Source: Candidatus Aminicenantes bacterium (GTDB lineage Bacteria > Acidobacteriota > Aminicenantia > Aminicenantales > Saccharicenantaceae). From it: DNA of 64,000 bases. A program made the position numbers and the translations under genes. Positions 254-61,356 of this stretch are shown in pieces; positions within the stretch are counted from its first letter, which is position 1; each line of letters starts with the position of its first letter. A model generated the notes under the pieces. The model did not search any database. It was not told where the DNA came from and worked only from the letters and a program-made list of their open reading frames with translations. The stretch covers positions 38,638 to 102,637 of the forward strand of contig CAVWFA010000012.1 in assembly GCA_963754085.1 (NCBI GenBank). Reading direction: 5' to 3'.

Positions 254-345
254 GGGGTCAAACCTAAATTCTTATAATTTTCCGGCGGTGCTGCGACACC
301 TGAATATGGGGAGCTCGAAAATAATAAGAATTTAGGTTTGACCCC
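254..345. repeat. Foldback element family A, copy A1. Arms are GGGGGTCAAACCTAAATTCTTATAATTTTC and GAAAATAATAAGAATTTAGGTTTGACCCC, around a unique 34-nt GC-rich core.
   Basis: An inverted repeat of about 29 bp read directly from the sequence, with one mismatch. The conserved AAGA-G-GGGG lead-in lies at 249-257. Confidence 0.85.
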
Positions 346-381
346 GGGAGGATTGCGGCCTAGAATGGCCGTGAAGGGCGA

Positions 382-631: not shown

Positions 632-3153
632 ATGAGTGAAACGACGACCGCTGCCCCCGACGGGCGCAGCCCTGTCATGAAACGTCCGCCTTCGGCCTTG
701 TCGGCCAAGCTCAAGACCGCCTTCAACCGCTTTCGCGGCGTTCCCGTCGAAACCGACCTTGCGGCGTATGCGAGGACGGTCCGATCGATCCGCGCGGCGC
801 ACGAGGGCGGGGAGATCGCGGCGATCGCCGACGCCGAGATCGCCCGGCGGGCCGCGGCGCTCCGCCGGCCGCCGGCGGACGGGGCCTCCGTTCCGCCGTC
901 GCGGGAAGACGAGCGCGTGCGCGTCGCCATCTTCGCCCTGGCGCTCGAAGCCGCCCGCCGCGCGACCGGGCTCGACGCCCACGACGTCCAGATCATCGCC
1001 GGTCTGGCCATGACCGACGGCCGGATCGCCGAGCTCCCGACGGGGGAGGGCAAGACGCTGGCGGCGGTGTTCTCCGCCTCTTACTTCGCGCTACTCGGCC
1101 GGCCCGTCCACGTCCTGACCTTCAACGATTACCTGGCCCGCCGCGACGCGGTCTGGATGGGCCCGGCCTACCGCCTCCTCGGCCTGTCCGTCGGCGCCGT
1201 CCAGGAGGCCCCGGACAAGGCCGCCAAGAAGGCCGCCTACGCCTGCGATATCACGTATGCCACCGCCAAGGAGGCCGGCTTCGACTACCTGCGGGATCGG
1301 CTGGCTTACGAGCCCGGCGAACTCGTCCACCGGCCTTTCGCCGTGGCCCTCGTCGATGAGGCCGACTCCATCCTCATCGACGAAGCCCGTATCCCGCTCG
1401 TCATCTCCGGGACCTCCGGAGCGACCGGACCCGATGTCTCGCGGCTGGCCGCCGTCGTCCGGGACCTCGAGCGGGGCCGCGACTTCGTGACGGACGCCGA
1501 GAACGCCAACGTCTTCCCGACCGACGCGGGCATCCGCCGCGTCGAGTCGGCCCTCGGCTGCGGCAACCTGTTCACGCCGGAGAACGAGACGCTCCTGGCC
1601 GCGGTCCACTGCGCCCTCCACGCCGGGCTCCTGCTCGAGCGCGACGTCGATTACATCGTCCGCGACGGCCGCATCGAGATCGTCGACGAGTTCACCGGCC
1701 GGGTCATGGACAAGCGGCATTGGCCCGACGGCCTCCAGGCCGCCGTCGAGGCCAAGGAGGGGGTGCGGCGCGGCTCCGAGGGGCGCATCCTCGGGTCGAT
1801 CACGCTCCAGCACTTCTTCCGGCTCTATCCGACGCTCTGCGGCATGACGGCCACGGCCGAGCCCTCGGCGCGAGAGCTCAAGGAATTCTACGGCCTCGGC
1901 GTCGTCGTCGTGCCGTCCCACCGGCCGTGCGTGCGCCGGGACCTGCCCGACGTCGTTTTCACGCATCGGGAGGCCCGGCGAACGGCCCTCGTCCGGGAGA
2001 TCGCCGCGTGTCGGGCCGCGGGCCGTCCCGTGCTCGTCGGGACGTCGAGCGTCCGGGAATCGGAAGAGCTCGCCGCGGCCCTGACCGGGCGGGCGTCCCC
2101 GTGCGAGGTCCTCAACGCCAAGAACGACGAGCTCGAAGCCGGGATCATCGCCCGGGCCGGCGTCCCGGGCGCCGTGACCATATCGACCAACATGGCCGGG
2201 CGCGGCACGGACATCAAGCTCGGCGGGCCGAACAACCCGGTTGTCGCGGACGAAGAAGAGCACGACCGGGTGGCCGGCCTCGGGGGGCTCATTGTCATCG
2301 GTACGAACCGGCACGAGAGCCTGCGCATCGACAGCCAGCTCCGCGGCCGGGCCGGCCGCCAGGGCGATCCCGGCTCGTCCGGTTCTTCATCAGCCTCGAG
2401 GACGATATCTTCGAGCGCTACGGGCTCACCCGCCGGCTGTTTTCCCGTTACAGGCTCGCGCGAAGCGCCGCTCCCGTCGACAACGAGCTCCTGCGCAAGG
2501 AGATCGTCCACGGCCAGCGTGTCATCGAGGGCCGCAATCTGGACATCCGCCGGGCGCTCTGGGATTATTCGACGCTCGTCGAAACGCAGAGGCGGATCGT
2601 CGCCGGCTGGCGCGACGCGGTCTTCGCTCCCGACGGGGGAGAGGCCGGTTCGCCTTTCCGAGTGGCGCCGGAGCTCGCGGAGGCGGGAACCGCCAAGCTG
2701 GGGCGGGATGCGTTCGAGCGGCTCGTCCGGCGGGCCGCGCTCTACCACATCGACGACGCCTGGACCGACCACCTGGCCTGGCTGGCCGACCTCCGCGAGG
2801 GGATCCACCTCGTCTCCATCGGGCGGAAGGAGCCGCTCCAGGAATTTCAAAAGGCCGCGACCGACGCCTTCCTCGAGCTCGAGGACAGGATCGGGGGCGC
2901 GATCGATGGCACGCTCCGTTCCCTCGTCGCCCGTGAGGGCCCGATCGACCTCGAGGCGGCTGGCCTGAAGGGGCCGTCGTCGACCTGGACCTACCTCGTC
3001 AACGAGGACCAGTTCGGCTGGGGCGTCGAGCTGCTCAAGGGGACGAACATCGGCGTCGCCGCGGGGGCCGCGGCGTTTTACGGCCCCCTGTTCCTCCTGG
3101 CCCTCATCGCCAATCGCTTTAAAAGGAAAGATAAAGAAGGGGTCAAACCTTAA
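632..3153 (+). CDS. secA: Preprotein translocase ATPase SecA. The reading frame is interrupted by a 1-bp deletion near 2378-2383, within GDPGSS|RFFISLEDD. The stop codon lies inside foldback element A2.
   Basis: The N-terminal motor motifs (GEGKTLAAVFSASYFALLGRPVHVLTFNDYLA, DEADSILIDEARIPLVISG) and the downstream GRAGRQGDPGSS...RFFISLEDD segment are in two different frames, which can be joined by adding a single C. A GAGGAGG RBS lies upstream of the ATG at 632. Confidence 0.85.
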
Positions 3154-3233
3154 TTCTTATAATATTTCCACGCAATTGGGACGAGCAAGGCCGTAGGGAT
3201 TTTCGAAAATTATAAGAATTAAGGTTTGACCCC
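3139..3233. repeat. Foldback element family A, copy A2. Its arm type is the same as A1 and A4.
   Basis: GGGGTCAAACCTTAATTCTTATAATATTTCC ... GAAAATTATAAGAATTAAGGTTTGACCCC. The secA stop codon TAA (3151-3153) lies inside the left arm. Confidence 0.85.
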
Positions 3234-3299
3234 TTCCGAATTGACAGGGCCGGCGGGGGCGGATAGAGTAAGAACTCCGTCGCTCCGGAGGAAGGACCG

Positions 3300-6777: not shown

Positions 6778-8623
6778 GTTCGGCCGCGCCGTCCGCGCCG
6801 TCGAGGACAGTCTCGCCATTGCGGCCATCTTCGCCCTCGCGGCGATGCTGCTCGCGGAGGTCGTCGCCCGCAAGGTGTTCAACACCGGGATCCGGGATTC
6901 GGGGGCTTACGTCGAACACCTCGTCCTGGCGGCCACGTTCCTTGCCGGGGCGGTCACGTCGCGCGAGAAGAAGCACCTCGCCCTGGCCACCGGCATGTTC
7001 CTGCCCGAGCGCTTCAAGGCCTATGCCGAGACGGTCACGGCGGTCCTGGCCTCGGCCCTGACGTTCGCCTTCGGGGTGAGCGCCTTGTCATTCGTATGGA
7101 CCGCGTTCGGCCCGGCCGACAGGGTCGGCTTCCTGCCCAAGCGGGCCGTCGTGCTGGTCATGGCGGCCGGCTTCCTGGTCATGAGCGCGCGCTTCGTCAC
7201 GACGATCAGGACGAAGAAGGCCAGGGTCTGGGCGGGGGCCGGGGCCCTCGTCCTGGGCCTCCTTCTCGGCTTCGATCCGCTCGTCCAGCTGTTGACCGCC
7301 GGCGGGACGGCCTCCCGGCCGGTCCTCATCGCGGCCGCGGGGTTCATCAAGCCGCTGGTCGGGGGGGCCGCCGGGCCGCTCATCCTCCTTCTCATCGCGG
7401 CCGCCTTCCTCGGCCTGCCCATCTTCACCGTGCTCGGCGGGATCGGTTTCCTCCTCTTCGCCAAGACCGGGCAGCCCCTCGAGATCATCCCCAACCAGGC
7501 CTACGGGGTCCTGACGGGGAGCGCCATCCCGGCCATCCCGCTGTTCGCGGCGGTCGGCTTTTTCCTGTCCGAGAGCAAAGCGGCGGAGCGAATGGTCCGG
7601 TTCTTCCAGGCCGTGTTCGGCTGGTTCCCGGGCGGGCCGACCGTGATGGCCGTCCTCGTCTGCGCCTTTTTTACGACGTTCACGGGCGCCTCGGGCGTGA
7701 CCATCCTGGCCCTCGGCGGGCTCCTGGCCCTGATCCTGGAGAAATCCGGCTATGCCAAGCGTTTCACGGTCGGCATCCTGACCGCCTCGGGCAGCATCGG
7801 TTTGCTCTTCCCGCCCAGCCTTCCGGTCATCATCTACGGGGTGATCGCCCAGACGAGCATCAAGGACATGTTCGTCGGGGGGTTCCTGCCGGGGGTCTTC
7901 CTGGTCGTCTCCGTCGTCGCCGTCGGTATCGTCTACTCCTTCAAGCACCGGGTTCCGCGCCAGCCGTTCAAGGTCCGGGAGGCGGCGGCCGCGTTCCTGT
8001 CCTCTTTCTGGGAGCTCCTGCTGCCGCTCATCGTCTTCGGCCTCTATTTCGGCGGGATCGTCAGCCTGCAGGAGAGCGCGGCGGCGGCCCTGGTCTACGT
8101 CTGGATCGTCGAGACCTTCGTCAAGAAGGACGTGAAGATCCGCGACCTGCGCCGCATCTTCCTCCACGCCGTGCCCATCATCGGCGGCGTGCTGATCATC
8201 CTGGCCCTGGCCAACGGCCTGTCCTATTACATCATCGACGCCCAGATCCCCCAGAAGCTGAGCGAGTGGGTGGCGGCCAAGATCTCCTCTCCCTACGTGT
8301 TCCTGCTCCTGCTCAACCTGGCCCTGCTCGTCGTCGGCTGCTTCATGGACATCTACTCGGCCATTCTCGTCGTCGTGCCGCTCATCATCCCGCTGGGGAA
8401 CTACTTCCACATCCACCCGGTCCACCTGGGCATCATCTTCCTGGCCAACCTGGAGCTCGGATACCTGACGCCGCCGGTCGGGTTGAACCTGTATCTCGCC
8501 TCCTACCGCTTCAACGAGCCCCTGCCCCGGGTCTACAAGGACGTGCTGATCTTCCTCGGCATCGGGCTGGTGGCGGTGCTGCTCATCACCTACGTGCCCT
8601 TCCTGACCATGGCGCTGCTATAA
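6767..8623 (+). CDS. TRAP transporter fused small/large permease (DctQM).
   Basis: A 618-aa polytopic protein with a DctQ-like N-terminus and a DctM-like C-terminus. It overlaps the dctP stop. Confidence 0.75.
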   Translation: MASRFGRAVRAVEDSLAIAAIFALAAMLLAEVVARKVFNTGIRDSGAYVEHLVLAATFLAGAVTSREKKHLALATGMFLPERFKAYAETVTAVLASALTFAFGVSALSFVWTAFGPADRVGFLPKRAVVLVMAAGFLVMSARFVTTIRTKKARVWAGAGALVLGLLLGFDPLVQLLTAGGTASRPVLIAAAGFIKPLVGGAAGPLILLLIAAAFLGLPIFTVLGGIGFLLFAKTGQPLEIIPNQAYGVLTGSAIPAIPLFAAVGFFLSESKAAERMVRFFQAVFGWFPGGPTVMAVLVCAFFTTFTGASGVTILALGGLLALILEKSGYAKRFTVGILTASGSIGLLFPPSLPVIIYGVIAQTSIKDMFVGGFLPGVFLVVSVVAVGIVYSFKHRVPRQPFKVREAAAAFLSSFWELLLPLIVFGLYFGGIVSLQESAAAALVYVWIVETFVKKDVKIRDLRRIFLHAVPIIGGVLIILALANGLSYYIIDAQIPQKLSEWVAAKISSPYVFLLLLNLALLVVGCFMDIYSAILVVVPLIIPLGNYFHIHPVHLGIIFLANLELGYLTPPVGLNLYLASYRFNEPLPRVYKDVLIFLGIGLVAVLLITYVPFLTMALL

Positions 8624-8625
8624 GA

Positions 8626-8712
8626 GGGGGTCAAACCTATACCTTTTTAATTTCATTCTTTGGCGAAGGTCGGGGCTAAGTCGCGAAATTAAAAAGGTAT
8701 AGGTTTGACCCC
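8626..8712. repeat. Foldback element family A, copy A3 (arm type 2, CTATACCTTTTTAATTT).
   Basis: GGGGGTCAAACCTATACCTTTTTAATTTC ... GAAATTAAAAAGGTATAGGTTTGACCCC around a unique 30-nt core. It starts 3 nt after the dctQM stop codon. Confidence 0.85.
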
Positions 8713-8715
8713 ATC

Positions 8716-9063
8716 CTATTTATCCCTATTGAAGTGGGGCAGGTCCCAGGGGATCTCGAGGGAGAGCTCGACGAAGCCGGCGTAAACGCCGTCCCGGAAC
8801 CAGGGCGCCTGGTAGATCAGCTTCTTCTTGCCGTTCTTCTGAATGGTGTAAACGTTCGTCCGCCGTTCCGCCATCATCCCCGCGAGCTGCGTGCGGCTCG
8901 GCTCGGGATGGCAGTCGAAGACGTTCGTGCCGATGAGGGCCGCTCCGCCGTCGGCCGCGAAGACCTCGCGCGCCCGCCCGTTCAGTTCGAGGATCCGGCC
9001 CTCGGTGTCGCAGACCGTGACCGCGCCCGGGAATTCCCGGACCCACGCCTGGTCGCTCATGAC
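8716..9063 (-). CDS. PAS-domain protein of 115 aa.
   Basis: MSDQAWVREFPGAVTVCDTEGRILELNGRAREVF... is a PAS-like sequence. Confidence 0.5.
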   Translation of the reverse strand, partial: VMSDQAWVREFPGAVTVCDTEGRILELNGRAREVFAADGGAALIGTNVFDCHPEPSRTQLAGMMAERRTNVYTIQKNGKKKLIYQAPWFRDGVYAGFVELSLEIPWDLPHFNRDK

Positions 9064-9419
9064 CTCTCCTTTTTCGCCCGCCCCTTGAACAGGGCCCGTA
9101 CGGCGTACCCCGCGTAGCCGGCCAAGCCGGCCGAGAGCGCCGCGACGAGCGCCGTGGCCGCGAGGACCGTCCAAGGCCGGTCCAGACCGAACATCCGGGC
9201 CATCCTGTCCGCGATGAGCTCGCTCCCGGTGAGATAGAAATAGGTCCCGGCCCCGAGCCACAGGAGCCCCGCCGCGAAGAGGCCGGTGCGGATCGCCCTC
9301 CAGCCGCTCGTCGCCGCGGCCGCGCCGTAGGCGAAGGGGACGATCATGATCCACCACCAGTAAGGGGCCACGAGCTGGAGGGCCAGCAAAGCCAGAAGGC
9401 ACACGAGCGTCGCGATCAT
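9057..9419 (-). CDS. Small hydrophobic membrane protein of 120 aa.
   Basis: Three to four predicted TM helices. It overlaps both flanking genes by a few bp, which suggests an operon. Confidence 0.4.
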   Translation of the reverse strand: MIATLVCLLALLALQLVAPYWWWIMIVPFAYGAAAATSGWRAIRTGLFAAGLLWLGAGTYFYLTGSELIADRMARMFGLDRPWTVLAATALVAALSAGLAGYAGYAVRALFKGRAKKERS

Positions 9420-11977: not shown

Positions 11978-12667
11978 ATGACCGACGCGCCCGTCTTTAC
12001 CGGTTTCAGCAAGGAGACCGTGCGCTTCTACGCCGAGCTCCGGAAGAACAACAACAAGCCGTGGTTCGAGGACCATCGCGGGATCTTCGAGGGCCACGCC
12101 ATGGCCGAGGCCAAGCTCTTCGTCGTGGCCATGGGGGAGAGGCTGAAAAAGATCGCGCCGGGCCTCGTCGCCGTCCCCGCGGTCAACAAGTCCATCTTCC
12201 GCATCTACCGCGACACCCGCTTCAGCCTGGACCCGACGCCCTACAAAACGCACCTGGGCATCTACTTCTGGGACGGCTCCAGGCCGAAGATGGAATCGGC
12301 CGGCTTTTATTTCCAGCTCGAGCCGCCCGACCTCTACATGGGCGGCGGCATGTACATGATCCCCGACAACCTGCTCGACCGCTACCGGAGGGCCGTCGTC
12401 GACAGGACCCGCGGCCCGCAGATCGGGAAGATCGTGGCCGCGCTGCGGGCCCGGCCGGGCTTCACGGTGGAGGGCGTCCACTACAAGCGCGTTCCGGCGG
12501 GCTTCGACCCCGGCCACCCCAACGCGGAGCTGCTCAAGCACAAAGGGCTCTACGCGGGGATCGAGGAGAAGATCCCCGGGGAGTTCTATTCGGCCAAGCT
12601 CATCGATCATTGTCTCGAGCGCTTCGAGCCGATCGTCCCGCTGAACCGCTGGCTGATGAAGCTCTGA
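11978..12667 (+). CDS. DUF2461 (TIGR02453) family protein.
   Basis: A 229-aa protein containing the characteristic NNNKPWFEDHR...IYRDTRFS motifs. Confidence 0.6.
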   Translation: MTDAPVFTGFSKETVRFYAELRKNNNKPWFEDHRGIFEGHAMAEAKLFVVAMGERLKKIAPGLVAVPAVNKSIFRIYRDTRFSLDPTPYKTHLGIYFWDGSRPKMESAGFYFQLEPPDLYMGGGMYMIPDNLLDRYRRAVVDRTRGPQIGKIVAALRARPGFTVEGVHYKRVPAGFDPGHPNAELLKHKGLYAGIEEKIPGEFYSAKLIDHCLERFEPIVPLNRWLMKL

Positions 12668-12671
12668 AATA

Positions 12672-12695
12672 GGGGGACATGATACCCGTTTCCCA
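12672..12695. repeat. Family B repeat, solo half-copy (GGGGGACATGATACCCGTTTCCCA).
   Basis: Identical to the left arm of the 15448-15505 palindrome. It lies 4 nt after the DUF2461 stop codon. Confidence 0.8.
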
Positions 12696-12751
12696 TTTAT
12701 TCGTACCTCACGGTTTCTCCTGAGCTGATGCGGGAACATGAAGAGGGGTTC

Positions 12752-13991: not shown

Positions 13992-15484
13992 ATGAGACCC
14001 GAACGCCTTCCTCTTCCCCTTCTCGTGAGCATGGCCGTCGCCGCGGGCGCGCTGTTCGTCGGCGTTTCGCGGGCCCAGGAATTCGCGACAGGCGACGCTC
14101 GTCGAGCGGGCCGTCTGTCTGAAGGACCCCGGACAGAGCTACGCGCCTCTATCTGCCGTCTTCGTTCGACCCGGCGAGGACGTGGCCCGTCCTTTTCCTC
14201 TTCGATTCGGGCGCGCGCGGATCGTTGGCGGTCGCGGCGTTCAGGGAGGCGGCCGAGACCTACGGGTGGATCCTCATCGGCTCCAACAATTCGCACAACG
14301 GTCCCCAGCGGGACAACGCCCTGGCCGCCCAGGCCGTCTGGGCGGACGCTCTGACGCGGCTGCCGATCGACGCCCGGCGCGTCTACGCCTCCGGCTTTTC
14401 CGGCGGGGCCCGCGCCGCGTCGGCCTTTCCGCAATACGTCGGCCGCGCCATCGCGGGAGTCGTCGGCTGCGGCGCCGGGATCGCCACGGGCCTCGATCCC
14501 GGGAGCCTGGACGCGGCGGCCTATTTCGGCCTGGCGGGATTGGCGGACTTCAACTACGGCGAAATGAAGGGCCTCGACCGGGCCCTCGATCCCTCCGGCC
14601 TCCCGCACGCGTTTTACTATTTCGAAGGAACGCACGATTGGCCGGACCCGTCTTCGTGCGCCCGGGCCGCCGGCTGGATGGAAGTCATGGCCATGCAGCA
14701 GGGGCTTCGTCCGACGGACCCCGCGCTGGCCGCAATCGTGATCGAGCGCGAGCTCGAGGAAGCCCGGACGCTCGAGGACGCGGGCCGGATCTATTGGGCC
14801 GGCGAACGGCTCGAGGCCGCGGCGCTCCTGGCCCGGGGACTGGACCTCGACCTGGCGGGCCTGCAGGACCTGCCTTCGCGCGTCGCGAAGCTGAAAGCCC
14901 GGACGGAATACCGGCAATTCCTCGACGCCGAAAAGGCCAGGGACCGGAAGGAGGCGGAATTCCGGACGAGTTTCGGCCGGGCCTTCGGCGCTGTCGAAGA
15001 CCCGGATACGGGCGGCTCGTCAGCCGTGCCGAAGGTGCTTCAGGAGATGCGGATCGGGTTCTTCAAAAAGGACGCGAAAACCGCCAAGACGGTCGAAGAG
15101 CGGAGCCTGGCGTCACGGCTCCTCTTCGAGTTCAGCCTGGCCGCTCAGGCCCGGGCCGTCGCCCTCTATGACCGGCGCGATTTCGGCCGGTCCGCGGCCT
15201 ATGGGGACCTCGCGATCGCCGCATGCGAGGAGGGGCTACCCCGGGAAAAGGGTCTTTATTACAGCAGGGCGAGCGTCGCCGCGGTTTCGGGCGACAGGAA
15301 AACGGCGCTGAAATGCCTGTCCACCGCCGTGGACAAGGGCTTCGTCGATCTCGGGCTCCTCGAAAGGGACGGCGATTTCGATCCGATCAGGGACACGGCA
15401 GGGTTCCGTGAGATCCTGGAACGGGTCAGGCAGGCCCGGGAGAAAAAGGGGGACATGATACCCGTTTCCCAATTCATTAAATAG
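13992..15484 (+). CDS. Secreted alpha/beta-hydrolase (esterase/depolymerase-like) with a C-terminal TPR-like region. Two frameshifts lie near 14095 and 14150.
   Basis: A signal peptide (MRPERLPLPLLVSMAVAAGALFVGVSRAQEF) is followed by ATLVERAVCLKDPGQSYA in the +1 frame, then LYLPSSFDPARTWPVLFLFDSGARGSLAVAAF...GFSGGARAA (nucleophile elbow) in a third frame. Confidence 0.55.
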
Positions 15485-15511
15485 GAAACGGGTATCATGT
15501 CCCCCTTTTTT
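15448..15511. terminator. Family B perfect palindrome (22-bp stem, 14-nt loop) followed by TTTTTT and preceded by an A-run. It probably acts as a bidirectional intrinsic terminator between convergent genes.
   Basis: GGGGGACATGATACCCGTTTCC-caattcattaaata-GGAAACGGGTATCATGTCCCCC-TTTTTT. The left arm also encodes the last 8 codons of the esterase. Confidence 0.7.
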
Positions 15512-18500
15512 CAGCGGAGGACCAGCAGCCGGCCCTGGCCGGGCTCGACGCGGATCGGGTCGCCGGGCTTGAATTCGGCCGCGTCCTGGAACTTGTCGAT
15601 GGCCGGGGCGGTCAGCACGGCCTTCTTCGGATCGAGGCCGAGCTTCTTCCAATCGATCGCCAGGCGGACGTCGACGGCGCCCTTGGCCCAGGAGGCGAGG
15701 GTGATCATCGCCGTGTTGCCGGCCCCCGCGCCCTTCCGGACGAACGTCGTCGCCAGCACCTCCCGGTTCCCCGTCTTGACCGGATTCGCGTCGACCCACC
15801 AGCCGATCATCTCGCTGGCCGTGATCCCGAACTCGTCCCAAACCTTCCAGAGCGGCCGCGGGTCGCCCGCCCAGGGTAGGCGCGCCGTCATCCCGAAGAC
15901 CATGCCGCGCCAGGCGTTGCCGCCGTCCTGGAGCATCTCGCCCATGAGACCGAAGGGCAGCCCCGACACCTCGACCAGCCAGTAGTCCGGGCCGCTCCCG
16001 TTGTAGTCGAAATATTCGCCGAACCAGAGGCGGTTCAGATAGGGGAAATGCTCGAGGTAGAGGTTGGCGCTCGAGGCGAAGCCGTCGCGGACGTTGTACT
16101 GGTTGGCGCTGTGGAGGTCGATGAGGGCCCCGGGCCGGTTGCGGTCGAGGACCTTGCGGACCCGTTTCATGGTCGTCCGGTCGAAGGCGACGTCGTCGAG
16201 GTAGAGGCCGTCGATGCCGACGTTCTTGGCCACCCAGTCGAGCCCCTCGATGTAGTAGTTGTGCCAGCGCGACATGCCGCTGTTGATGACCGCGGCGTCC
16301 TTGAGCTCGGGCACGAACCAGGCGGCGATGTAGTCGCCCCCGAGGTGCTCCTGGAGCCAGGAATAGCCGCCGCCCGGCCCCGGCGTGAAGATCTCGTGGC
16401 CGAGGCTGCGCAGGGCGAAGAGCTCCGGAGCGCGGTTGGAGAGCTCGCGCACGGTGTCGTAGATCTTGACCCTGAAGCCGCGCCGGTGGGCGTCGTCGAT
16501 GTAGGCCTTCATCTCGGCGACGCGCAGGAAGGGGTAGTTGATGTAGGGATTGACGGCGTTGGCGTGGTGGACGTTGATGACGTTGGCCCCGGTCGCGGCG
16601 ATCTTGTCGAGGGGCTCGAAGGCGTGGAAGTAGCGCTCCTTGAAATGAGCGGGCGGATCGAGGGGCTTGAACGGGGTGAGGAGAAGGGTGAAGTCGAAGC
16701 GGAGGGTCTCGCCCCGGCGGATCGTCCGGGCCCCGGACGCGGCGCACATGACGACGGCGCGGGCCTTGGCGCCGGCCTGGCCCGGTCCCGCCGTCCGCAC
16801 GGTCACCGTGCCCTTGCCGCCGTTCCACCAGGACGGCGGCATGTTCAGGGGCTTCGACAGGTAGAAATTCGTGTTGAGCGGCCGCGAATAGTTCTCGGCC
16901 CGCAGTCCGACCTGGAGCCCGGCGTTGACCGATCCGATCCAGAGCGCGTCCTGGTTCTTTTTCTGGTCCCAGGCCCAGTCGAACGTCTCGGGACGGGCGC
17001 CGCCCTTGTAGCCGAGGCCCATCATGTACCCGGCGGCCTCCGGACTCCAGGGCACTTCGAGCCGGATGTCCGCGACGGACGCGTCGCTCTGGGCGGAGAC
17101 GGCGACCTTGTACTCGACGAACCCGTCGAATTCCATGCGGGCCTCGACCCGCATGAGGAAGCCGCCGTTGCAGTTGTCGGCTTCCCAGACGACCGCCCCG
17201 GGACCGCGCCGGCCCACCCGCGGACCGGTGACGCTCGGCGTCCAGACGTGCTCCTTCCCGTCCTTGCCGATGACCCGGAGCCGGATCGGGCCGGCCGTCA
17301 CGGGAACGGGCTTGGACTGCAGGCGGGTCATCTCGGGCGCGAAGTAGCTCTGGATGAGGGCCGGGAAGCCGTCCCGGCCGATGGTCAAAGAGCGCCCGAG
17401 GCAGCGGACCGTGAACGTGTCGACCGTAAGAGGCGTATAAGGCCGGACGATGTCGTCGTCCTGGGCCAGCCGTCGAATCGAGCCAATGCAGCCGGGACAT
17501 GCGGTAGGGATCGTCGTCGGCCGAGCATCGGGGAGAGGGGCTCCGTCGTGACGTACGGCGCGATTCGAGGATCGTCGCGGCCAGTCCGTTGGGCGCGACG
17601 GTGACCGTCCCGTCGTAGACGCCGAAACGGGCATCGGGAGCGGCATCTGGATGCCGCACCAGAGGGCCTGGACCTTGCCTTTGTCGATGGAGACTTTCTT
17701 CCGGAAGGCCTTCCCGTCCCAGCCGATCCCGCCGGTGTTGATGCAGGTCAGGGCCGAGGCGGGGATGACCGCCGGCTTGGCGGGATCGCCCGTTTCGTTT
17801 CCGAAAGGACGCCACACATAGTCCGAAAACCTCACCTCGAGGTCCTCGACGGCCTGCCGGGCGGCCCAAACCCCGATCTGGAAGGTCGCAAAGTCTCCGT
17901 AATGCCCATCCACTTGATGTCCCCCCGACCACGTCGGGTCGGCCCAATGCCGAGGCAGGTCGTCCGTCATCCGGATGGACATCGTCCGATCTTCGGGAAA
18001 GAGAAGATAGGCCGTGTCGGGATTGCGGGCAAGGAGCGCCCGCACCTCCGCGGCCGTGGCGATCTCCTCCATCATCGTGAACATGTTGAAATCGTCGACG
18101 GACTCGATCCTGACGAACGCGGCTTCGGGGATCGATCCGGAGACAGGGAGCGGGGCCGAGCTGCCGGCCGCCGGGAGCCCGTTGGCGAGGAGCCAGGCAG
18201 GCTCGGCCGTCTCCTTCGGCGGGTCGTATTTGACGTTCGGATAGTTCTTGCGGCCTTCGGACTTGTAGGGCATGTAATAGAAATAGTATTCGCCGGGCAC
18301 GGTGCGGGGCTCGAAGACGAAGTCGCCGGATTCGCGGTCGACGGCGAGAGCGAGGACGTTGCCGACGCGCTCGCCCGTGGCCGCGTCGACGACGATGACG
18401 GCCTTCTTGCCGGGTTCCGCGTCGCGGCGCCGCCAGGGAATGACGACCCGGACGGCGGCGGGCTTGGCGATCTTCGGTGCGGTCGGGGCCTCGACGCGGA

Positions 18501-18675
18501 CGACCGCTCGATGATTACCCAATCCCGTCTCAGAGTCCCAACTCGCGTCGCCGGACTTGCCGGTCTCTCCCTGAGGCGTGCAGGCCGCGAAGAGGGGCGG
18601 CACAATGAGCAGAACGACCAGCATGGCCATTGTTCCAGGGGTCATCGTTCTTTTCGAGGCTTCCGGATCTTTCAT
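15511..18675 (-). CDS. Large secreted lipoprotein, DUF4091/glycoside-hydrolase-like, of about 1050 aa. There are probably two compensating frameshifts near 17540-17660.
   Basis: A long ORF with a signal peptide and lipobox (LFAAC). The segment ARFGVYDGTVTVAPNGLAATILE appears in a second frame within the weak region. Confidence 0.5.
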   Translation of the reverse strand: MKDPEASKRTMTPGTMAMLVVLLIVPPLFAACTPQGETGKSGDASWDSETGLGNHRAVVRVEAPTAPKIAKPAAVRVVIPWRRRDAEPGKKAVIVVDAATGERVGNVLALAVDRESGDFVFEPRTVPGEYYFYYMPYKSEGRKNYPNVKYDPPKETAEPAWLLANGLPAAGSSAPLPVSGSIPEAAFVRIESVDDFNMFTMMEEIATAAEVRALLARNPDTAYLLFPEDRTMSIRMTDDLPRHWADPTWSGGHQVDGHYGDFATFQIGVWAARQAVEDLEVRFSDYVWRPFGNETGDPAKPAVIPASALTCINTGGIGWDGKAFRKKVSIDKGKVQALWCGIQMPLPMPVSASTTGRSPSRPTDWPRRSSNRAVRHDGAPLPDARPTTIPTACPGCIGSIRRLAQDDDIVRPYTPLTVDTFTVRCLGRSLTIGRDGFPALIQSYFAPEMTRLQSKPVPVTAGPIRLRVIGKDGKEHVWTPSVTGPRVGRRGPGAVVWEADNCNGGFLMRVEARMEFDGFVEYKVAVSAQSDASVADIRLEVPWSPEAAGYMMGLGYKGGARPETFDWAWDQKKNQDALWIGSVNAGLQVGLRAENYSRPLNTNFYLSKPLNMPPSWWNGGKGTVTVRTAGPGQAGAKARAVVMCAASGARTIRRGETLRFDFTLLLTPFKPLDPPAHFKERYFHAFEPLDKIAATGANVINVHHANAVNPYINYPFLRVAEMKAYIDDAHRRGFRVKIYDTVRELSNRAPELFALRSLGHEIFTPGPGGGYSWLQEHLGGDYIAAWFVPELKDAAVINSGMSRWHNYYIEGLDWVAKNVGIDGLYLDDVAFDRTTMKRVRKVLDRNRPGALIDLHSANQYNVRDGFASSANLYLEHFPYLNRLWFGEYFDYNGSGPDYWLVEVSGLPFGLMGEMLQDGGNAWRGMVFGMTARLPWAGDPRPLWKVWDEFGITASEMIGWWVDANPVKTGNREVLATTFVRKGAGAGNTAMITLASWAKGAVDVRLAIDWKKLGLDPKKAVLTAPAIDKFQDAAEFKPGDPIRVEPGQGRLLVLR

Positions 18676-18787
18676 TTTCGCCGCCTTGCCAAGAATCGGG
18701 ACCGGGAAGACACTTAAGGGCCCCCAATTTATAAGGGCGGACGGGGGATGTCAAGTTACCGGGTTTTTGGGCTGGAAAATTAATAAC

Positions 18788-30883: not shown

Positions 30884-30912
30884 TTGCGTTGATTCTAGGA
30901 TAAAAGAGAGAA

Positions 30913-31008
30913 GGGGTCAAACCTAAATTCTTACAATTTTCGATTCCCTGGGCGCAAGAGGCGACCCTGCCTAGGCGACGAAAATTATAAGAATTTAGGT
31001 TTGACCCC
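30913..31008. repeat. Foldback element family A, copy A4 (arm type 1).
   Basis: GGGGTCAAACCTAAATTCTTACAATTTTCG ... CGAAAATTATAAGAATTTAGGTTTGACCCC around a unique 37-nt core. It lies between the rodZ start and the ftsX stop. Confidence 0.85.
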
Positions 31009-31011
31009 CTC

Positions 31012-31908
31012 CTAGACCTTCAGGAACTTCGAGACCGAGGTGGCGCTGCCGATGAAGCCGGTGGCCGCCCCGCCGACGAGCAGGGCGACGGCCTGGGTCA
31101 GGTCGGGATAGCGGAAGCGCAGGAGCTCCTGGAGCGCCCCGAGGGACGCCCCGAGATAGACGGGGAAGAGCTGGATGACGATGAAAAGAAGGCCCAGCGA
31201 GAGCAGGCTCCCGAGGAGCCCCAGCGTGATGCCCTCGAGCCAGAAGGGGATGCGGATGAACAGGTTCGTCCCGCCGACGAGCCGGAGGATCTCGATCTCG
31301 TTCCTGCGGGCGAAGACGTTGAGCTTGACGACGTTGGAGATGATGAAGAACGAGGTCAGGATAAGGATACCGCCCAGGAACGCCCCGATGGCCCCGGCCA
31401 GGCGGCTGAAGCCCTGCATCTTCTCGACCCAATCCTGATTGAACAGGACATCGGTGACGCCCGGGCGCTTCTTCATGCCCTCGACGAAGGCGACGACCTC
31501 CTTCGAGGCGGAGGCCCTGGCGTTGACCCGGACTTCGAGCGCCGGCGGAAACGGATTGGCCTTGAGGCCGGCCACGACGTCGGCGAGCTCGGGAAAATTC
31601 AGGCGGAACCTCTCCAACGCTTCGTCGGCCGAGACCAGCTTGACGCTCTCGACGAAGGCCGGCCGGGCGATCTCCTGGCGAACGGCCTCCACGGCGCCGG
31701 CCGAGAGCTTGGCATCGAGATAGAAGGCGATGCTCATGTTGCTCGACAACTCGCGGGCCGTGTCCCGGAGATTGTTGGTCAGCGACACGAAGATGCCGAC
31801 CGTGAGGAAGGACAGGCAGATGATGGTCACGGAGAAGAGGTTCCGCGTCCGGAACTGCCACAGGTTGTTGCCCGTGACCCGGAAGAAGAACTTCACCTTC
31901 TCGATCAC
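31012..31908 (-). CDS. ftsX: Cell division permease FtsX, with a probable GTG start.
   Basis: The FtsX topology and the C-terminal TM bundle are present. The start overlaps the ftsE stop (GTGA). Confidence 0.75.
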   Translation of the reverse strand: MIEKVKFFFRVTGNNLWQFRTRNLFSVTIICLSFLTVGIFVSLTNNLRDTARELSSNMSIAFYLDAKLSAGAVEAVRQEIARPAFVESVKLVSADEALERFRLNFPELADVVAGLKANPFPPALEVRVNARASASKEVVAFVEGMKKRPGVTDVLFNQDWVEKMQGFSRLAGAIGAFLGGILILTSFFIISNVVKLNVFARRNEIEILRLVGGTNLFIRIPFWLEGITLGLLGSLLSLGLLFIVIQLFPVYLGASLGALQELLRFRYPDLTQAVALLVGGAATGFIGSATSVSKFLKV

Positions 31909-54321: not shown

Positions 54322-55641
54322 ATGGCCAAGATACTGCTGGTCGATTTCAGCCCGGCCGACCGGGATCGTCTTATTGCCGAAAAGTACGATGTCGATGCGC
54401 GCTCGACCGGCTGGACCACCGGCCTCGACGAGCCCCTGGATCTCTCGGGCGAACATGACGTCGTCTTTTACCAGGTCGGCGGCGAGGCCGCGGCCGGCCG
54501 CCCTGATCTTCACGCCGATGCGCACGAGGCGCTCCTGGAGCGCGCGCGCGAAGGCGCCCGGATCGTCTGCTTCATCGGCGGCGGGGAGACGTTCCAGCTG
54601 ACGAACATCGTCGGGCCCCTGGACGGGCTTCAGATCAAGGATAGCGCCCGGGCCGAGGCCGTCGTCTTCAGCCCGCGGGCCCTGTTCCACGTCCCTTTCG
54701 AGAGGTTCCGGCCGTACATCGCCAGCGCCTTCCGCCTCCTGCCCGAAACGTTCGGCGACGGGATCTGGGAGACGGAATCGTCCGCGAACGGCAAGTTCGA
54801 GTTCCTGGCCAAGACGACCGACGGCGCGCCCGTGGCCATGGTCGTCCGGAAAGGGAAGGGCGAGCTCCTGCTCCTGCCCTCGTTCGGGCCCAAGACGATC
54901 GAGGTCGTCGATTACATCCTCAAGGATAAGCTGCCGCTCACGCCCGAGCCTCCCGGCGAGGCGGGCGCCGGCTGGCTCGAAGGCGAAGACTACGTCTTCC
55001 CCGAGCTCCGGGCCCTGGTGGCCAAGCGCGACGAGGAGAAAAAGAAGCTCGAGGAGGCCTTGGCCGACTACGACCGCCAGATCAAGGACCTCAAGGCCGG
55101 CGGCCAGGAGGAGTTCCACCGCCTGCTCAGCGGCGAAGGAGCGGTCCTCAAGAACGCCGTCGTCCACGCCCTCCGCTACCTCGGCTGGGGCCGCGTCGTC
55201 GACGTCGACCAGTACTGGAAGAAGACCATCCGGAACAAGGAGGAGGACGCCTGGGTCATCGATCCCCCCGATATGCCCGTGGAGGCCGGCCTGCGCAAGG
55301 GCGAGCTGGTCATCGTCCTCGCCCGGGGCGGCAAGAACTGGGCCACGGACGACGAGTGCGCCCTGCTTCAGAAGTTCAAGGGCCGGCGGATGCAGGAGTT
55401 CGACAACACCCGGATGAAAGCGGTCCTCGTCGGCAACTACTTCTCGGCGGCCGAGGCCAAAAGCCGGCCCAATCCGTTCTCGGCCGCGCAGATCGAGGAG
55501 ACCCAGAAGGACGGCAACGGCCTGGTCACGACCTACGAGCTGTTCCGGGCCATCAAGGCCGAGAAGGAGGGCCGCGTTTCCAAGGACGCCATCCGCGAGC
55601 AGATCAGGCGCAAGACCGGACTGATCACTTTCGATATTTGA
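54322..55641 (+). CDS. Hypothetical 439-aa cytoplasmic protein of unknown family.
   Basis: A clean ORF with a good RBS (AAGGAG). No family is recognised from the sequence. Confidence 0.5.
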   Translation: MAKILLVDFSPADRDRLIAEKYDVDARSTGWTTGLDEPLDLSGEHDVVFYQVGGEAAAGRPDLHADAHEALLERAREGARIVCFIGGGETFQLTNIVGPLDGLQIKDSARAEAVVFSPRALFHVPFERFRPYIASAFRLLPETFGDGIWETESSANGKFEFLAKTTDGAPVAMVVRKGKGELLLLPSFGPKTIEVVDYILKDKLPLTPEPPGEAGAGWLEGEDYVFPELRALVAKRDEEKKKLEEALADYDRQIKDLKAGGQEEFHRLLSGEGAVLKNAVVHALRYLGWGRVVDVDQYWKKTIRNKEEDAWVIDPPDMPVEAGLRKGELVIVLARGGKNWATDDECALLQKFKGRRMQEFDNTRMKAVLVGNYFSAAEAKSRPNPFSAAQIEETQKDGNGLVTTYELFRAIKAEKEGRVSKDAIREQIRRKTGLITFDI

Positions 55642-55648
55642 GAAAGAT

Positions 55649-55735
55649 GGGGTCAAACCTATACCTTTTTAATTTTTGCCAGATGTGACTCGACCTATGA
55701 GGCAAAAAAACTAAAAAGGTATAGGTTTGACCCCC
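55649..55735. repeat. Foldback element family A, copy A5 (arm type 2).
   Basis: GGGGTCAAACCTATACCTTTTTAATTTTTGCC ... GGCAAAAAAACTAAAAAGGTATAGGTTTGACCCCC around a unique 21-nt core. It lies 7 nt after the upstream gene's stop codon. Confidence 0.85.
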
Positions 55736-55818
55736 TTTGCCAGCCGTCTTGCTATTCGCTCCCTCCCCATATAGAATTCTTTTCCGCGTGACCCCGTGAG
55801 CAACGGAGGAGGAGAGCG

Positions 55819-57757
55819 TTGAACCTGACCTGGATCGATTGGGGGATCGTCCTCGCCGTCTTCGCCTTCATCATCGCCGTCGTCATCCTCAGCAAGCCGC
55901 TCATGCGCAGCGTCTCCGACTTCCTGGCCGCCGGCCGGACCGGCGGGCGCTACCTCATCAGCCTGTCCCAGGGCACGGCCTCCCTCGGCGCCATCACCAT
56001 CGTCGGCATGCTCGAGATGAACTACATCGCCGGCTTCAATATGCGCTGGTGGGAGATGGTCATGGCCGTCGTGGTCGTCGGGATCAGCGTCTCGGGCTGG
56101 GTCCTCTACCGGTTCCGCCAGACCCGGGCCCTGACCATGGCCCAGTTCTTCGAGATCCGCTACAGCCGGCAGCTTCCGCATCTTCGCCGGGACCATGGCC
56201 TTCCTGTCCGGGATCATCAATTTCGGCATCTTCCCGGCCGTGAGCGCCCGCTTCTTCATCTACTTCTGCGGCCTGCCGCAGACGGTCGACCTCCTCGGCC
56301 TTCACGTCTCGACCTTCGCCCTGATCATGATCGTCATCCTCTGGATCCCGCTCTACTTCGTCTTCAGCGGCGGCCAGATCGCGGTCATGATCACCGACTT
56401 CATCCAGGGCATCTTCGTCAACGTCGTCTTCATCGTCATCGTCGTCGTCCTGATGCTCAAGATCGACTGGGGCCAGATCTTCCAGGCCCTGTCCCAGGCT
56501 CCGGCGAGCGCCTCGCTGGTCAACCCGTTCCATACGGGCAGCACCAAGGACTACAACTTCTGGTACTTCTTCATCGGCATGATCGGGGTCATCTACGGCA
56601 AGCTCTCCTGGCAGGGGACCCAGGCCTATAACGCCTCGGCCAAGAGCGCCCACGAAGCCAAGATGGGCGATGTCCTGGCCAACTGGCGCGGCATCCCGCA
56701 GTGGGGCCTGTTCCTCGTGTTCGTGCCCATCGTGGCCTACACGTTCTGGCATGGGCAGGCGTTCACGGCCGCGGCCGCCTCGGTCCGGCCCGTCCTCGAC
56801 GGGCTGGCCTCGGACGCCCTGAGAAGCCAGCTGACCGTGCCGATCGCCCTGACCAAGCTCCTGCCGGTCGGGCTGATGGGCGCGTTCGCGGCGGTCATGC
56901 TGGCCGCGGCCATCGGCTGCAACGAGACCTACCTCCACTCCTGGGGCAGCATCTTCATCCAGGACGTGATCATGCCTCTGCGGAAGAAGCCCTTCGCGCC
57001 GGAGCAGCACCTCAAGGCCCTCAAGCTCTCCATCCTGGCCGTCGCGGCCTTCTCGTTCGTCTTCAGCCTGCTCTTCCAGCAGAGCGAGTACATCTTCCTC
57101 TTCTTCGCCATCACCGGCGCCATCTTCGCCGGCGGGAGCGGCGCGGTCATCATCGGCGGCCTGTACTGGAAGCGGGGCACGACGGCCGCGGCCTGGTCGG
57201 CCATGATCGTCGGCTCCGTCGTCGCCGTCGGCGGCATCGCCGTCAAGCAGCTCGTGCCCGGCTTCCCCGTCAACGGCCAGATGTTCTGGGGCCTGGCCAT
57301 GGCCGGGTCGAGCGTCGTCTACATCGTCGTCTCGCTCCTCACGGGCGGCCGGAAGACCTTCGACATGGACAAGATGCTCCATCGGGGGAAGTACCTGGTC
57401 AAGGAGGAATACGCCGTCGTCGATACGGTCCCGGTCAAGGGCTGGAAGGTCCTGGGCATGGGCCGGGAGTTCACCCGCTGGGACAAGGTCATCTACGTCG
57501 CGACCTACGCCTGGACGGCCAGCTGGGTCGTCGTCTTCGTCGTCGGGACGGTCCTCAACCTGACCCGCGAGGTCTCGACGGCCGCCTGGCTCGGCTTCTG
57601 GCGGACCTACACGATGATCTTCCTGGCCGTCTCCGTCTTCGTCATCGTCTGGTTCTCGATCGGCGGCATCATCAACCTCAAAGAGATGGTCCGGACGCTC
57701 AAGGTCATGAAGCGCGACCACTCCGATCAGGGCTTCGTCGAGCGGGACCGCGGCTGA
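55819..57757 (+). CDS. Sodium:solute symporter (SSS family) with a TTG start. A 1-bp insertion lies near 56168.
   Basis: FFEIRYSR|SFRIFAGTMAFLSGIINFG becomes continuous after removing one C. The protein has about 13 TM helices. Confidence 0.65.
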
Positions 57758-60159: not shown

Positions 60160-61172
60160 ACAACAAAAAGGGAGGGACCCTGCGCCGGGATCCGTCCAAT
60201 CCGATCCTGACCCGGGCGGACCTGCCGGACATCCCGCCTGGTCTCATGGACGCCACTTCGGTGTTCAACCCGGGCGCGGTCAAGGCCGCCGGGATCACCT
60301 ATCTCGTCCTCCGCGTCCAGGCCCGGTCGCGCGAGACCTTCATGGTCATGGCCGAGAGCGCCGACGGCGTCCGTTTCGTCGTCCGCCCGGAGATCGTGGA
60401 CCTCAAGGGGATCGAACAGGTCCGGGAGAGGATCTATCACGTCTATGACGGCCGCATCACCCGGCTCGAGGGGGTCCATTACGTCATGTTCGCCATGGAC
60501 ATGGACGGCGGCTGCCGGCTGGGACTGGCCCGGACGGACGACCTCCGGGAGTTCCGGTTCATGGGCGTCACGTCGACCGACGACGTCCGCAACGGCGTCC
60601 TGTTCCCGGAGAAGATCGGAGGCCTGTACCTCAGGCTCGAGCGGCCCAACAAGGCCAAGCTCGAAGGCGGCCCGACCACGGGCTCGGAGATCTGGCTGGC
60701 CGGCTCGGACGATCTGCTCACCTGGCGGCGGCTCGGCCCGGTCATGGGCGGGCGCTTCCACTACTGGGACGAGTTCATCGGCTCGGGGCCGCCGCCGGTC
60801 AAGACCCGGAGCGGCTGGCTGCATGTCTATCACGGCGTGGCGACGCATTTCGGCAGCGCCAACATCTACCAGGCCGGGGTCTCCCTGCTCGACCTTCGCG
60901 ATCCGGCCAAGGTCCTGGGCCGCTCCCGGGGCAACATCCTCGAGCCGCGGGAGCCCTACGAGCTCTGCGGCCAGGTCCCCAACGTGGTCTTCCCCTCGGG
61001 CCTGGTGGTCGAGGACTTCGACGCCGAGGGCTTCGCCCTGCCCTCGAGCCCGGTCAAGGTCTACTACGGCGCCGCCGACACCGTGGTGGGCCTGGCCGTG
61101 ACGACGGTCGGCGAGCTCCTCGACGCCTGCGGCGATCCCGGATGGGGTCAAACCCGGGAGCAAGCTTCTTAA
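60156..61172 (+). CDS. GH130-family glycoside phosphorylase (beta-mannoside phosphorylase-like).
   Basis: A 338-aa five-bladed beta-propeller-like sequence. Its start overlaps the GH94 stop (ATGA). Confidence 0.65.
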   Translation: MNNKKGGTLRRDPSNPILTRADLPDIPPGLMDATSVFNPGAVKAAGITYLVLRVQARSRETFMVMAESADGVRFVVRPEIVDLKGIEQVRERIYHVYDGRITRLEGVHYVMFAMDMDGGCRLGLARTDDLREFRFMGVTSTDDVRNGVLFPEKIGGLYLRLERPNKAKLEGGPTTGSEIWLAGSDDLLTWRRLGPVMGGRFHYWDEFIGSGPPPVKTRSGWLHVYHGVATHFGSANIYQAGVSLLDLRDPAKVLGRSRGNILEPREPYELCGQVPNVVFPSGLVVEDFDAEGFALPSSPVKVYYGAADTVVGLAVTTVGELLDACGDPGWGQTREQAS

Positions 61173-61175
61173 GAC

Positions 61176-61268
61176 GGGGTCAAACCTCCATTTTTACAGT
61201 TTCCCGCCGTATCGCCCCGAGCGCCTGGCAACGCGTTCGGGAAACTGTAAAAATGGAGGTTTGACCCC
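61176..61268. repeat. Foldback element family A, copy A6 (arm type 3). It is nested inside an outer 21-22-bp inverted repeat that itself starts GGGGTCAAACC (61144-61165 and 61285-61305).
   Basis: GGGGTCAAACCTCCATTTTTACAGTTTCCCG ... CGGGAAACTGTAAAAATGGAGGTTTGACCCC. The outer repeat is GGGGTCAAACCCGGGAGCAAGC ... GCTTGCTCCCGGTTTGACCCC. Confidence 0.85.
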
Positions 61269-61356
61269 GTCTGAAAATCCCCGGCTTGCTCCCGGTTTGA
61301 CCCCTTCTTATTTATATGCTAAAAAAGAGGTTCGATCCGGCCGTTTGGAGAGAACC

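Follow-up and report, generated by a model that had tools for sequence, protein, structure and literature searches.

Hairpin repeats just after stop codons in a Candidatus Aminicenantes genome and their probable relationship to TIRYT transposases

We analysed a 64,000-nt stretch of DNA from a Candidatus Aminicenantes bacterium (assembly GCA_963754085.1, contig CAVWFA010000012.1, positions 38,638 to 102,637 of the forward strand), referred to here as the window, in which foldback elements lie beside genes such as secA and ftsX. We consider it probable that these foldbacks are non-autonomous hairpin repeats, built as inverted dimers of the TIRtron terminal repeat (TIRYT, TnpA_Y1 subclass 2.1). 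The original prediction, which described foldbacks at gene 3' ends from the letters of the window, had not recognised what they were; repeats cognate to a RAYT/TIRYT tyrosine transposase is, in our judgement, the likely answer.

Half-sites were located in the window by repeat finding and a pattern search. Fourteen GGGGTCAAACC half-sites were present where 1.35 were expected by chance, and they pair into seven foldbacks with the termini GGGGTCAAACC...GGTTTGACCCC. The six foldbacks claimed previously were all recovered; their count was one short, since the outer element at 61144-61304 had been overlooked. The features are as follows, with the short conserved sequences at either side of a core called boxes.

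254-345: foldback A1, core, with left box AAGAG at 249-253; in a divergent intergenic region, at no gene 3' end
3134-3238: foldback A2 with boxes (AAGAA 3134-3138, core 3139-3233, TTCCG 3234-3238); an orthologous copy is present at locus L114
3136-3153, plus strand: last five codons and stop of secA (E G V K P *), formed from the A2 box and left arm; TAA at 3151-3153
8622-8717: foldback A3 with boxes (core 8627-8712); the stop TAA of a DctQ-DctM fusion (8621-8623) overlaps the AAGAG box
30908-31013: foldback A4 with boxes (core 30913-31008); the FtsX stop TAG (31012-31014, minus strand) overlaps the right box
55644-55739: foldback A5 with boxes (core 55649-55734); the stop TGA of the upstream gene (55639-55641) is 7 nt before the core
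61171-61273: foldback A6 with boxes (core 61176-61268); the GH130 stop TAA (61170-61172) overlaps the AAGAC box
61144-61304: seventh (outer) foldback, GGGGTCAAACCCGGGAGCAAGC ... GCTTGCTCCCGGTTTGACCCC then TTCTT, with A6 nested in its loop

Terminal repeats shared with a Y1 transposase family

The termini of the foldbacks match terminal repeats found around a Y1/HUH transposase of ~320 aa, whose own stop codon usually falls within its right-hand repeat. Inverted repeats bracket the Y1 gene at loci L121, L070, L028, L184, L204 and L207, which belong to relatives and not to the genome of the window itself. At L070, from a Desulfobacterium assembly, two foldbacks flank a gene whose 326-aa product has a Y1_Tnp domain (PF01797, E 1e-11) and matches NCBIfam NF047646 REP_Tyr_transpos with an E value of 6e-20 and 71.6 bits, under the cut-off of 80. 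This protein ends in ...GVKP*, a tail encoded by GGG GTC AAA CCT TGA within a foldback, as is the case for secA in the window. Locus L121 has the order GGGGTCAAACCTTGAATTT, gene, AAATTCAAGGTTTGACCCC, and the TGA stop of the transposase lies in the right repeat. Complete foldbacks stand on both sides of the gene at L184, one of them with an AAGAC box, and the same bracketed layout was seen at L207 (62% G+C) with a GTCTT box. P0256, labelled 'Candidatus Aminicenantes', has an upstream foldback beginning GGGGTCAAAGCTACAC and a stop in the matching right arm.

Most of the 120 homologues listed end in ...IKV*, a tail that at L121 and at many metagenome loci is encoded by AAG GTN TGA(CCCC). A GGGGTCAnnnC-like site was found ~64 nt 5' of the start in 38 of 70 metagenome loci, and a complementary site at the stop in 24 of the 70; the inner triplet covaries between both ends of these units (AAA/TTT, CAC/GTG, CAT/ATG and GAC/GTC). 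P0121 carries the motifs GNHYHLLL and YIHRNP, and PF08299 (Bac_DnaA_C) is annotated on P0241 and many of its homologues.

These features correspond to a described class. A TIRtron consists of a gene for a RAYT-like Y1/HUH tyrosine transposase (TIRYT) together with its terminal inverted repeats; the consensus of these repeats is GGGGWSAS, and some are scattered in clusters or as dimers (Di Nocera et al., 2013; PMC3733652). TIRYTs were placed in TnpA_Y1 subclass 2.1, which is recognised by the motifs NH[YF]H and Y[IV]HLNP and, at the C-terminus, a helix-turn-helix domain like that of DnaA (Quentin et al., 2018; PMC6006769), and they equal the Group 1 RAYTs of Bertels et al. (2017; PMC5581495). 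The sequence GGGGTCAA fits GGGGWSAS at 7/8 positions in all 14 half-sites, and the sister variants next to homologous genes, GGGGTCAC and GGGGTCAG, do so at 8/8. The likeness to TIRtrons includes a terminal repeat that starts GGGGTCA, repeats lying ~64 nt 5' of the transposase gene and overlapping its 3' end, and a transposase with NHYH, YIH(R/L)NP and the DnaA-like domain at its C-terminus; TIRtron repeats are also dispersed as dimers and clusters, and an Acidobacteria-specific subgroup has been reported. A Y1 gene at the Aminicenantes locus L055 was considered as the cognate enzyme and rejected, as it belongs to a different subfamily and has no matching termini.

The REP/REPIN-RAYT system (Nunvar, 2010; Bertels & Rainey, 2011, PMC3116915) is similar in its high-copy extragenic palindromes, its long hairpins without target duplications, its cognate single-copy Y1 transposase flanked by repeats, and its clusters and nested copies. 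REP termini can give a neighbouring ORF (open reading frame) its stop codon, and both stop-codon donation and a 3'-end location have already been described for REP-type repeats (PMC3733652). The foldbacks differ in that there is no GT[AG]G tag at the foot of the hairpin, the foot being (C/T)AAGAN-GGGGTCA in all copies, and in that their arms contain, by eye, no internal palindrome, which makes each a repeat dimer and not a doublet of REP hairpins. Their loops are unrelated, unlike REPIN populations, which are dominated by near-identical master sequences. A study of 2015 in E. coli reportedly found many REPs within ~15 nt of a stop codon, where they lower translation via trans-translation.

Structure of the foldbacks and their placement relative to stop codons

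To describe the population, one genome per species was scanned with GGGGTCAAACCT-N55-85-AGGTTTGACCCC, which gave at least 113 loci; 121 copies from more than 40 assemblies were used. The matches listed came mostly from Candidatus Aminicenantes and other Acidobacteriota, with a minority from Desulfobacterota, Verrucomicrobiota, Nitrospirota, Actinomycetota and others. Each copy is laid out as (C/T)AAGAN, GGGGTCAAACCT, a T-rich inner arm of 16-17 nt, a loop of 25-45 nt, the complementary arm and N'TCTT. The stem runs 5 nt past the core, through (C/T)AAGAN...N'TCTT, and N and N' match in 51% of copies compared with 31% expected. Arm positions 13-28 were paired in 87-96% of the 121 copies with 3-5 pair types at each position, indicating covariation of the arms, and pairing was ~35% in the loop and in the flanks past position -5. 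All seven window copies were predicted to fold into ~33-bp hairpins (-47 to -72 kcal/mol, z -6 to -13). The arm subfamilies TTAATTCTTATAA, ATACCTTTTTAA and CCATTTTTACAG are present in the dispersed population.

At L114, where SecA is 92% identical, the arms of the A2-orthologous copy are ~93% and the loop ~70% identical (counted from the sequences), and we conclude that the arms are constrained and that the loops drift. The idea that loops are captured spacers or target DNA was rejected: loop sequences are absent from empty sites, diverge in a neutral-like manner in orthologues, and travel together with the arms in L081/L113. The loops are simply unconstrained. Two pairs of orthologous or paralogous copies (L053 2524-2617 and L106 1032-1125; L003 and L079) have the same flanks and orientation with the loop reverse-complemented, which suggests flipping by recombination between the two arms. 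A search of Rfam at gathering thresholds gave a tRNA-Arg as the sole match, and the A2 region at E <= 1 returned only sub-threshold microRNA-hairpin matches. A literature search on the terminal 11-mers returned nothing but primer coincidences.

The window has a G+C content of 62-70% and the foldback arms are AT-rich. A stop codon lies within 3-7 nt of, or inside, five of the seven foldbacks. The secA frame ends GAA GGG GTC AAA CCT TAA; as had been read previously, its stop falls within A2's left arm. The cores of A3 and A6 begin 3 nt past the dctQM and GH130 TAA codons, respectively, and the A4 core end at 31008 is 3 nt short of the minus-strand ftsX stop; these coordinates, and the 7 nt at A5, agree with the distances first reported, in which A4 was said to abut ftsX. 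The 'native' TAA at A3 and at A6 shares bases with the conserved AAGAN box, itself a piece of the extended stem. GH130 draws its last nine codons, and with them the tail (W)GQTREQAS, from the left arm of the seventh element, and the TAA after them belongs to the A6 box. A3 may border a second stop on its opposite side, that of a minus-strand ORF at 8716-9402 with a weak coding signal. It had also been stated that every element sits at a 3' end and none in a gene body or in a 5' leader far from a stop codon. None of the seven window copies is inside a gene body; the 3'-end part of the statement fails for A1, which lies between divergent starts, ~65 nt upstream of a minus-strand gene (start 188) and ~35 nt upstream of a plus-strand ORF (start near 382).

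We then determined the position of the wider population relative to genes, using crude ORF calls filtered by GC3. Elements and element-free spacers of the same loci were distributed as follows.

Co-directional spacers: 60 elements; 307 element-free spacers
Convergent spacers: 26 elements; 68 element-free spacers
Divergent spacers: 15 elements (~15% of copies); 78 element-free spacers
Inside an ORF call: 3 elements (of 121 copies); element-free, not applicable

The distance from stop to core had its mode at 3 nt (19/123 flanks, TAA GAN GGGG). The gene end was within 10 nt of the core in 53% of 3' flanks, including 15 with the stop inside the core, compared with 4% of 5' flanks, most of which had 20-80 nt to the gene. 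When only co-directional spacers were considered, the stop was the nearer neighbour in 40/59 (p = 0.009) and lay within 10 nt in 25/52, compared with 5.8 under uniform placement, a value of 25 being reached in none of 20,000 simulations. The exact 3-nt spacing occurred 10 times against 0.53 expected. A T at position -6, which gives TAA together with the box, was found in 41% of stop-adjacent flanks and in 19% of 5' flanks. The proposed non-random proximity to stop codons was thus borne out across many genomes, and the excess of short stop distances in the 121-copy sample does not agree with random intergenic placement. The location rule is a strong bias and not an absolute one, as A1 and ~15% of all copies lie between divergent gene starts. 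Targeting of TTGAC (the -35 box), suggested by the secA and A1 sites, was rejected as a general rule, as the 240 flanks gave one enriched position, which came mostly from one orthologous locus.

Several observations weigh against the assignment of the foldbacks to the TIRYT class or set them apart from it. Neither the 64-kb window nor ~95 Aminicenantes loci (8 kb each) yielded a transposase gene, which leaves a cognate enzyme for the exact GGGGTCAAACC subfamily of this genome putative. The terminus at P0256 is a sister variant, GGGGTCAAAGC, with AAAGC; position 8 of the foldback repeat is A (GGGGTCAA) where the TIRtron consensus has G or C; and the Aminicenantes copies add the AAGAN/N'TCTT stem extension. 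Seven hairpins in 64 kb contrast with the few to ~12 copies of a class described as not or only weakly repeat-associated. Quentin et al. (2018) found no REP-like repeats near subclass 2.1 genes (PMC6006769), and Bertels et al. (2017) counted only ~12 flanking 16-mers per replicon for Group 1 RAYTs (PMC5581495), so that the density seen here is unusual for subclass 2.1/Group 1. The loops of different copies are unrelated even where the arms are identical, a few pairs excepted, which fits old elements with constrained arms and not an actively replicating population. The position statistics are somewhat inflated because the gene calls are crude and several loci represent one orthologous site, and purifying selection alone does not explain the sharp 3-nt mode.

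The position of the elements could instead be set by a host function, with copies retained because they act as intrinsic terminators in both directions or stabilise 3' ends, and with a transposon origin of secondary importance. We give this explanation, which is compatible with a TIRYT origin, a real chance, though one short of even. The stem has a G+C-rich base (GGGG/CCCC) with AAGAN and A-rich sequence upstream and N'TCTT downstream, the same on both strands, and convergent gene pairs are over-represented, holding 26% of copies where the baseline is 15%. At the L114 orthologous copy the arms diverged ~5 times more slowly than the loop, and other foldback families with the same A-tract and T-tract flanks are found at gene ends (at L119, and GGGGGACATG at 15443-15510). 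However, a simple consensus terminator scan of the A1 and A2 regions called neither, the loops are 25-45 nt long and the T-tract is only TTCTT. Moreover, 15% of copies lie between divergent starts, and the promoter or start of the next gene follows 7-30 nt after A2 and A4. The stop bias could also be a by-product of genome compaction, in which short spacers force any surviving 100-nt insert onto a stop and AT-rich DNA is trivially rich in stops. In line with this, the empty secA site has only 4-10 nt between stop and -35 box, a promoter or ribosome-binding site takes up 20-80 nt in 5' flanks, and the core-internal stops are the first in-frame TAA or TGA of the arm. Compaction does not account for 11 co-directional spacers with the stop at most 15 nt away and the next start more than 100 nt away, for the excess of exact 3-nt spacings, or for a single 10-nt site 3' of secA that was struck by at least four different elements in seven relatives, and we find it unlikely.

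Two further classes of element resemble the foldbacks. Bacterial miniature inverted-repeat transposable elements (MITEs) such as Correia/NEMIS, ERIC and RUP are ~100-nt foldbacks beside coding regions, which are co-transcribed and can alter mRNA stability and donate promoter elements or stop codons. They originate from DDE-type insertion sequences and carry target duplications (TA for Correia). The inverted repeat of Tn3 begins GGGGTC, and the GGGGTC termini, ~100-nt size and terminal-repeat layout of the foldbacks would suit classical DDE-transposon MITEs such as the TIMEs derived from Tn3. However, no target-site duplication was detected among the 121 copies at offsets 0-7 with k = 2-5, matches being no more frequent than in shuffled controls, and the full-length matching units carry a Y1 transposase and not a DDE enzyme. 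We therefore rejected the DDE origin for want of target duplications and regard it as very improbable. Integron attC-like recombination sites that mark gene cassettes are likewise palindromes of imperfect conservation, constant at the ends and variable in the loops and in the covarying stems; they too are placed straight after ORFs, at times holding the stop, and GTCAAAC/GTTTGAC agrees with the RYYYAAC/GTTRRRY boxes at 6/7 positions. In contrast to attC sites, the foldback stems are paired continuously, with no extrahelical bases or unpaired spacer, and the copies are 3-25 kb apart among housekeeping genes (secA, ftsX, dctQM) and form no cassette arrays. An integrase context was absent from the regions examined and the link is to Y1 transposase genes, which leaves an attC identity with almost no likelihood.

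Mobility, the secA site and promoter-like ends

Comparison of orthologous sites gave evidence that the elements have moved. The 3' site of secA holds the same element in the window and in L114. The corresponding site in L115 (3918-4054) contains a nested pair with the stop within GGGGTCAACCTGA and the tail ...GST; that in L116 (3646-3773) contains a GGGGTCAGAT-type element with a TAA GAT box stop; and that in L119 (~2474-2537) contains a GGTCCCAG-type foldback with AAGAA/TTCTT flanks and the stop in its loop. No element occupies the secA site in L117 or L118; in these two, 4-10 nt separate the stop from the TTGACA of the permease promoter. L115 has no element at the A1 site. A 130-nt unit comprising box, loop and arms is 94% identical between loci L081 and L113, from two Aminicenantes species, within 8 kb that are otherwise dissimilar. 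At the level of these comparisons, the nested copies, the filled, empty and differently filled orthologous sites, and the presence of one unit at unrelated loci demonstrate mobility.

The gap between the secA stop and the permease -35 box appears as a hot spot, with at least four foldback types in seven relatives, two of which are empty. The A1-equivalent position of L116 (~846-906) has a short hairpin of another subfamily, AAGAT GGTGTCAGACCTACCTTTTACCC...GGGTAAAAGGTAGGTCTGGCACC ATCTT, 1 nt before a native TTGACG -35 box.

At their C-termini the SecA orthologues of this clade carry a hydrophobic segment, then NRF and a few basic residues, and they have no zinc-finger domain, so the suggestion that insertion had replaced a zinc-binding C-terminal domain does not apply. 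The broader claim, that insertion remodels C-termini, was upheld. SecA tails ending in EGVKP or EGVKPKFL were found only in P0001, P0007, P0014 and P0035, where the element is present (the DNA of P0014, at L114, contains it), and three other foldbacks at this site give three other tails. The change to SecA is a handful of residues of a short basic tail.

The SecA clade of the window (632-3153) has an unusual N-terminus and, before its basic tail, a C-terminal hydrophobic segment resembling a membrane anchor; the relative P0016 bears the NCBI name 'accessory Sec system translocase SecA2'. Apparent frameshifts were noted in secA at ~2270 (GDPGSS/RFFISLEDD), in a sensor-type gene at ~9402/9416 and in a sodium/solute symporter-like gene at ~55819-56195. 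These are probably assembly indels and not biology, because related long-read assemblies break secA in the same way.

The terminal sequence GGTTTGACCCC contains TTGACC, and promoter-like sites occur next to the foldbacks.

338-366, plus strand: promoter-like TTGACC-17-TAGAAT; A1 provides the -35 hexamer with its right terminus, and TAGAAT is conserved
3241-3269, plus strand: promoter-like TTGACA-17-TAGAGT of the amino-acid permease gene, 7 nt past the A2 core and 2 nt past TTCCG

The empty A1 site in L115 has its own native TTGACG-18-TAGAAT, and the permease promoter-like site is kept in relatives both with and without the element. On the side of A4 away from ftsX, TTGACC-17-TAGAAT (30884-30920, minus strand) ends 8 nt before the ATG (30883) of the RodZ-like gene, from which a leaderless or near-leaderless transcript would follow. 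Across the population a -10-like hexamer stood at the right spacing at 16/97 5'-adjacent ends and at 3/123 3'-adjacent ends (Fisher p = 4e-4). Judged by these consensus matches, the TTGACC of the element may act as a -35 box.

Taken together, the data suggest a mechanism in which a transposase encoded elsewhere in the genome would move the foldbacks as single-stranded DNA hairpins, in the manner of IS200/IS605 and REP-type elements, and copies would persist almost solely in the gap of a few nucleotides that separates a stop codon from the next signal. Because the outer box and the arms are AT-rich and abound in stop triplets, in a genome of 66% G+C, an element landing at a gene end or slightly within it would provide a new stop, TAA from the box or CCT TAA from the arm. 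The outward-facing TTGACC at each end could replace a -35 box. When transcribed, the element would place a 33-bp hairpin between A-rich and U-rich tracts at the 3' end of the mRNA, and such a hairpin could be expected to block 3' exonucleases or attenuate read-through. Purely by inference, a role as terminator or stabiliser would fit a stem with GGGG/CCCC at its base between A-rich and U-rich flanks.

The foldbacks are an unusually abundant new case of a known class, in which stop donation and a 3'-end location are familiar. We suggest only tentatively, and think it doubtful, that the Aminicenantes hold the first high-copy REPIN-like population under a Group 1/subclass 2.1 (TIRYT) transposase, a mobile 'punctuation mark' that prefers the position just after a stop. 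If this were true, a 100-nt unit would bring a stop codon, an outward -35 box and an RNA hairpin working both ways, and could thereby rewire how one gene ends and how its neighbour begins. The assignment provides a name and a likely enzyme for an abundant repeat of the poorly known, uncultured Candidatus Aminicenantes. It also extends the RAYT/REPIN picture to TIRYTs, which in earlier surveys spread repeats poorly. For annotation, it would mean that many proteins there bear short element-coded tails (...GVKP, ...GVKPKFL, ...GST) and that some promoters are hybrids using the TTGACC of the element. The sharp stop spacing makes target choice or selection of hairpins borne by Y1 transposases directly testable.

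Neighbouring genes and a second palindromic family

Pfam searches on the neighbours of the window foldbacks identified SecA, the DctQ-DctM fusion, FtsX, a RodZ-like protein, a GH130 enzyme and an amino-acid permease. The spacer 3' of A5 (55735-55818) measured more than 400 nt by the first gene calls and is probably only ~85 nt, as a symporter-like ORF begins near 55819 and then changes frame.

A second palindromic family, GGGGGACATGATACCCGTTTCCC, was found in the window at 15443-15510 and 12672-12699. The copy at 15443-15510 is a full hairpin with A- and T-runs between convergent genes. A plus-strand ORF (14123-15484) crosses its left arm and has its TAG stop in the right arm, and a minus-strand ORF (15511-18750) has its stop right after the T-run. 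The copy at 12672-12699 is a lone GGGGGACATGATACCCGTTTCCC arm, 5 nt past the TGA at 12665-12667.

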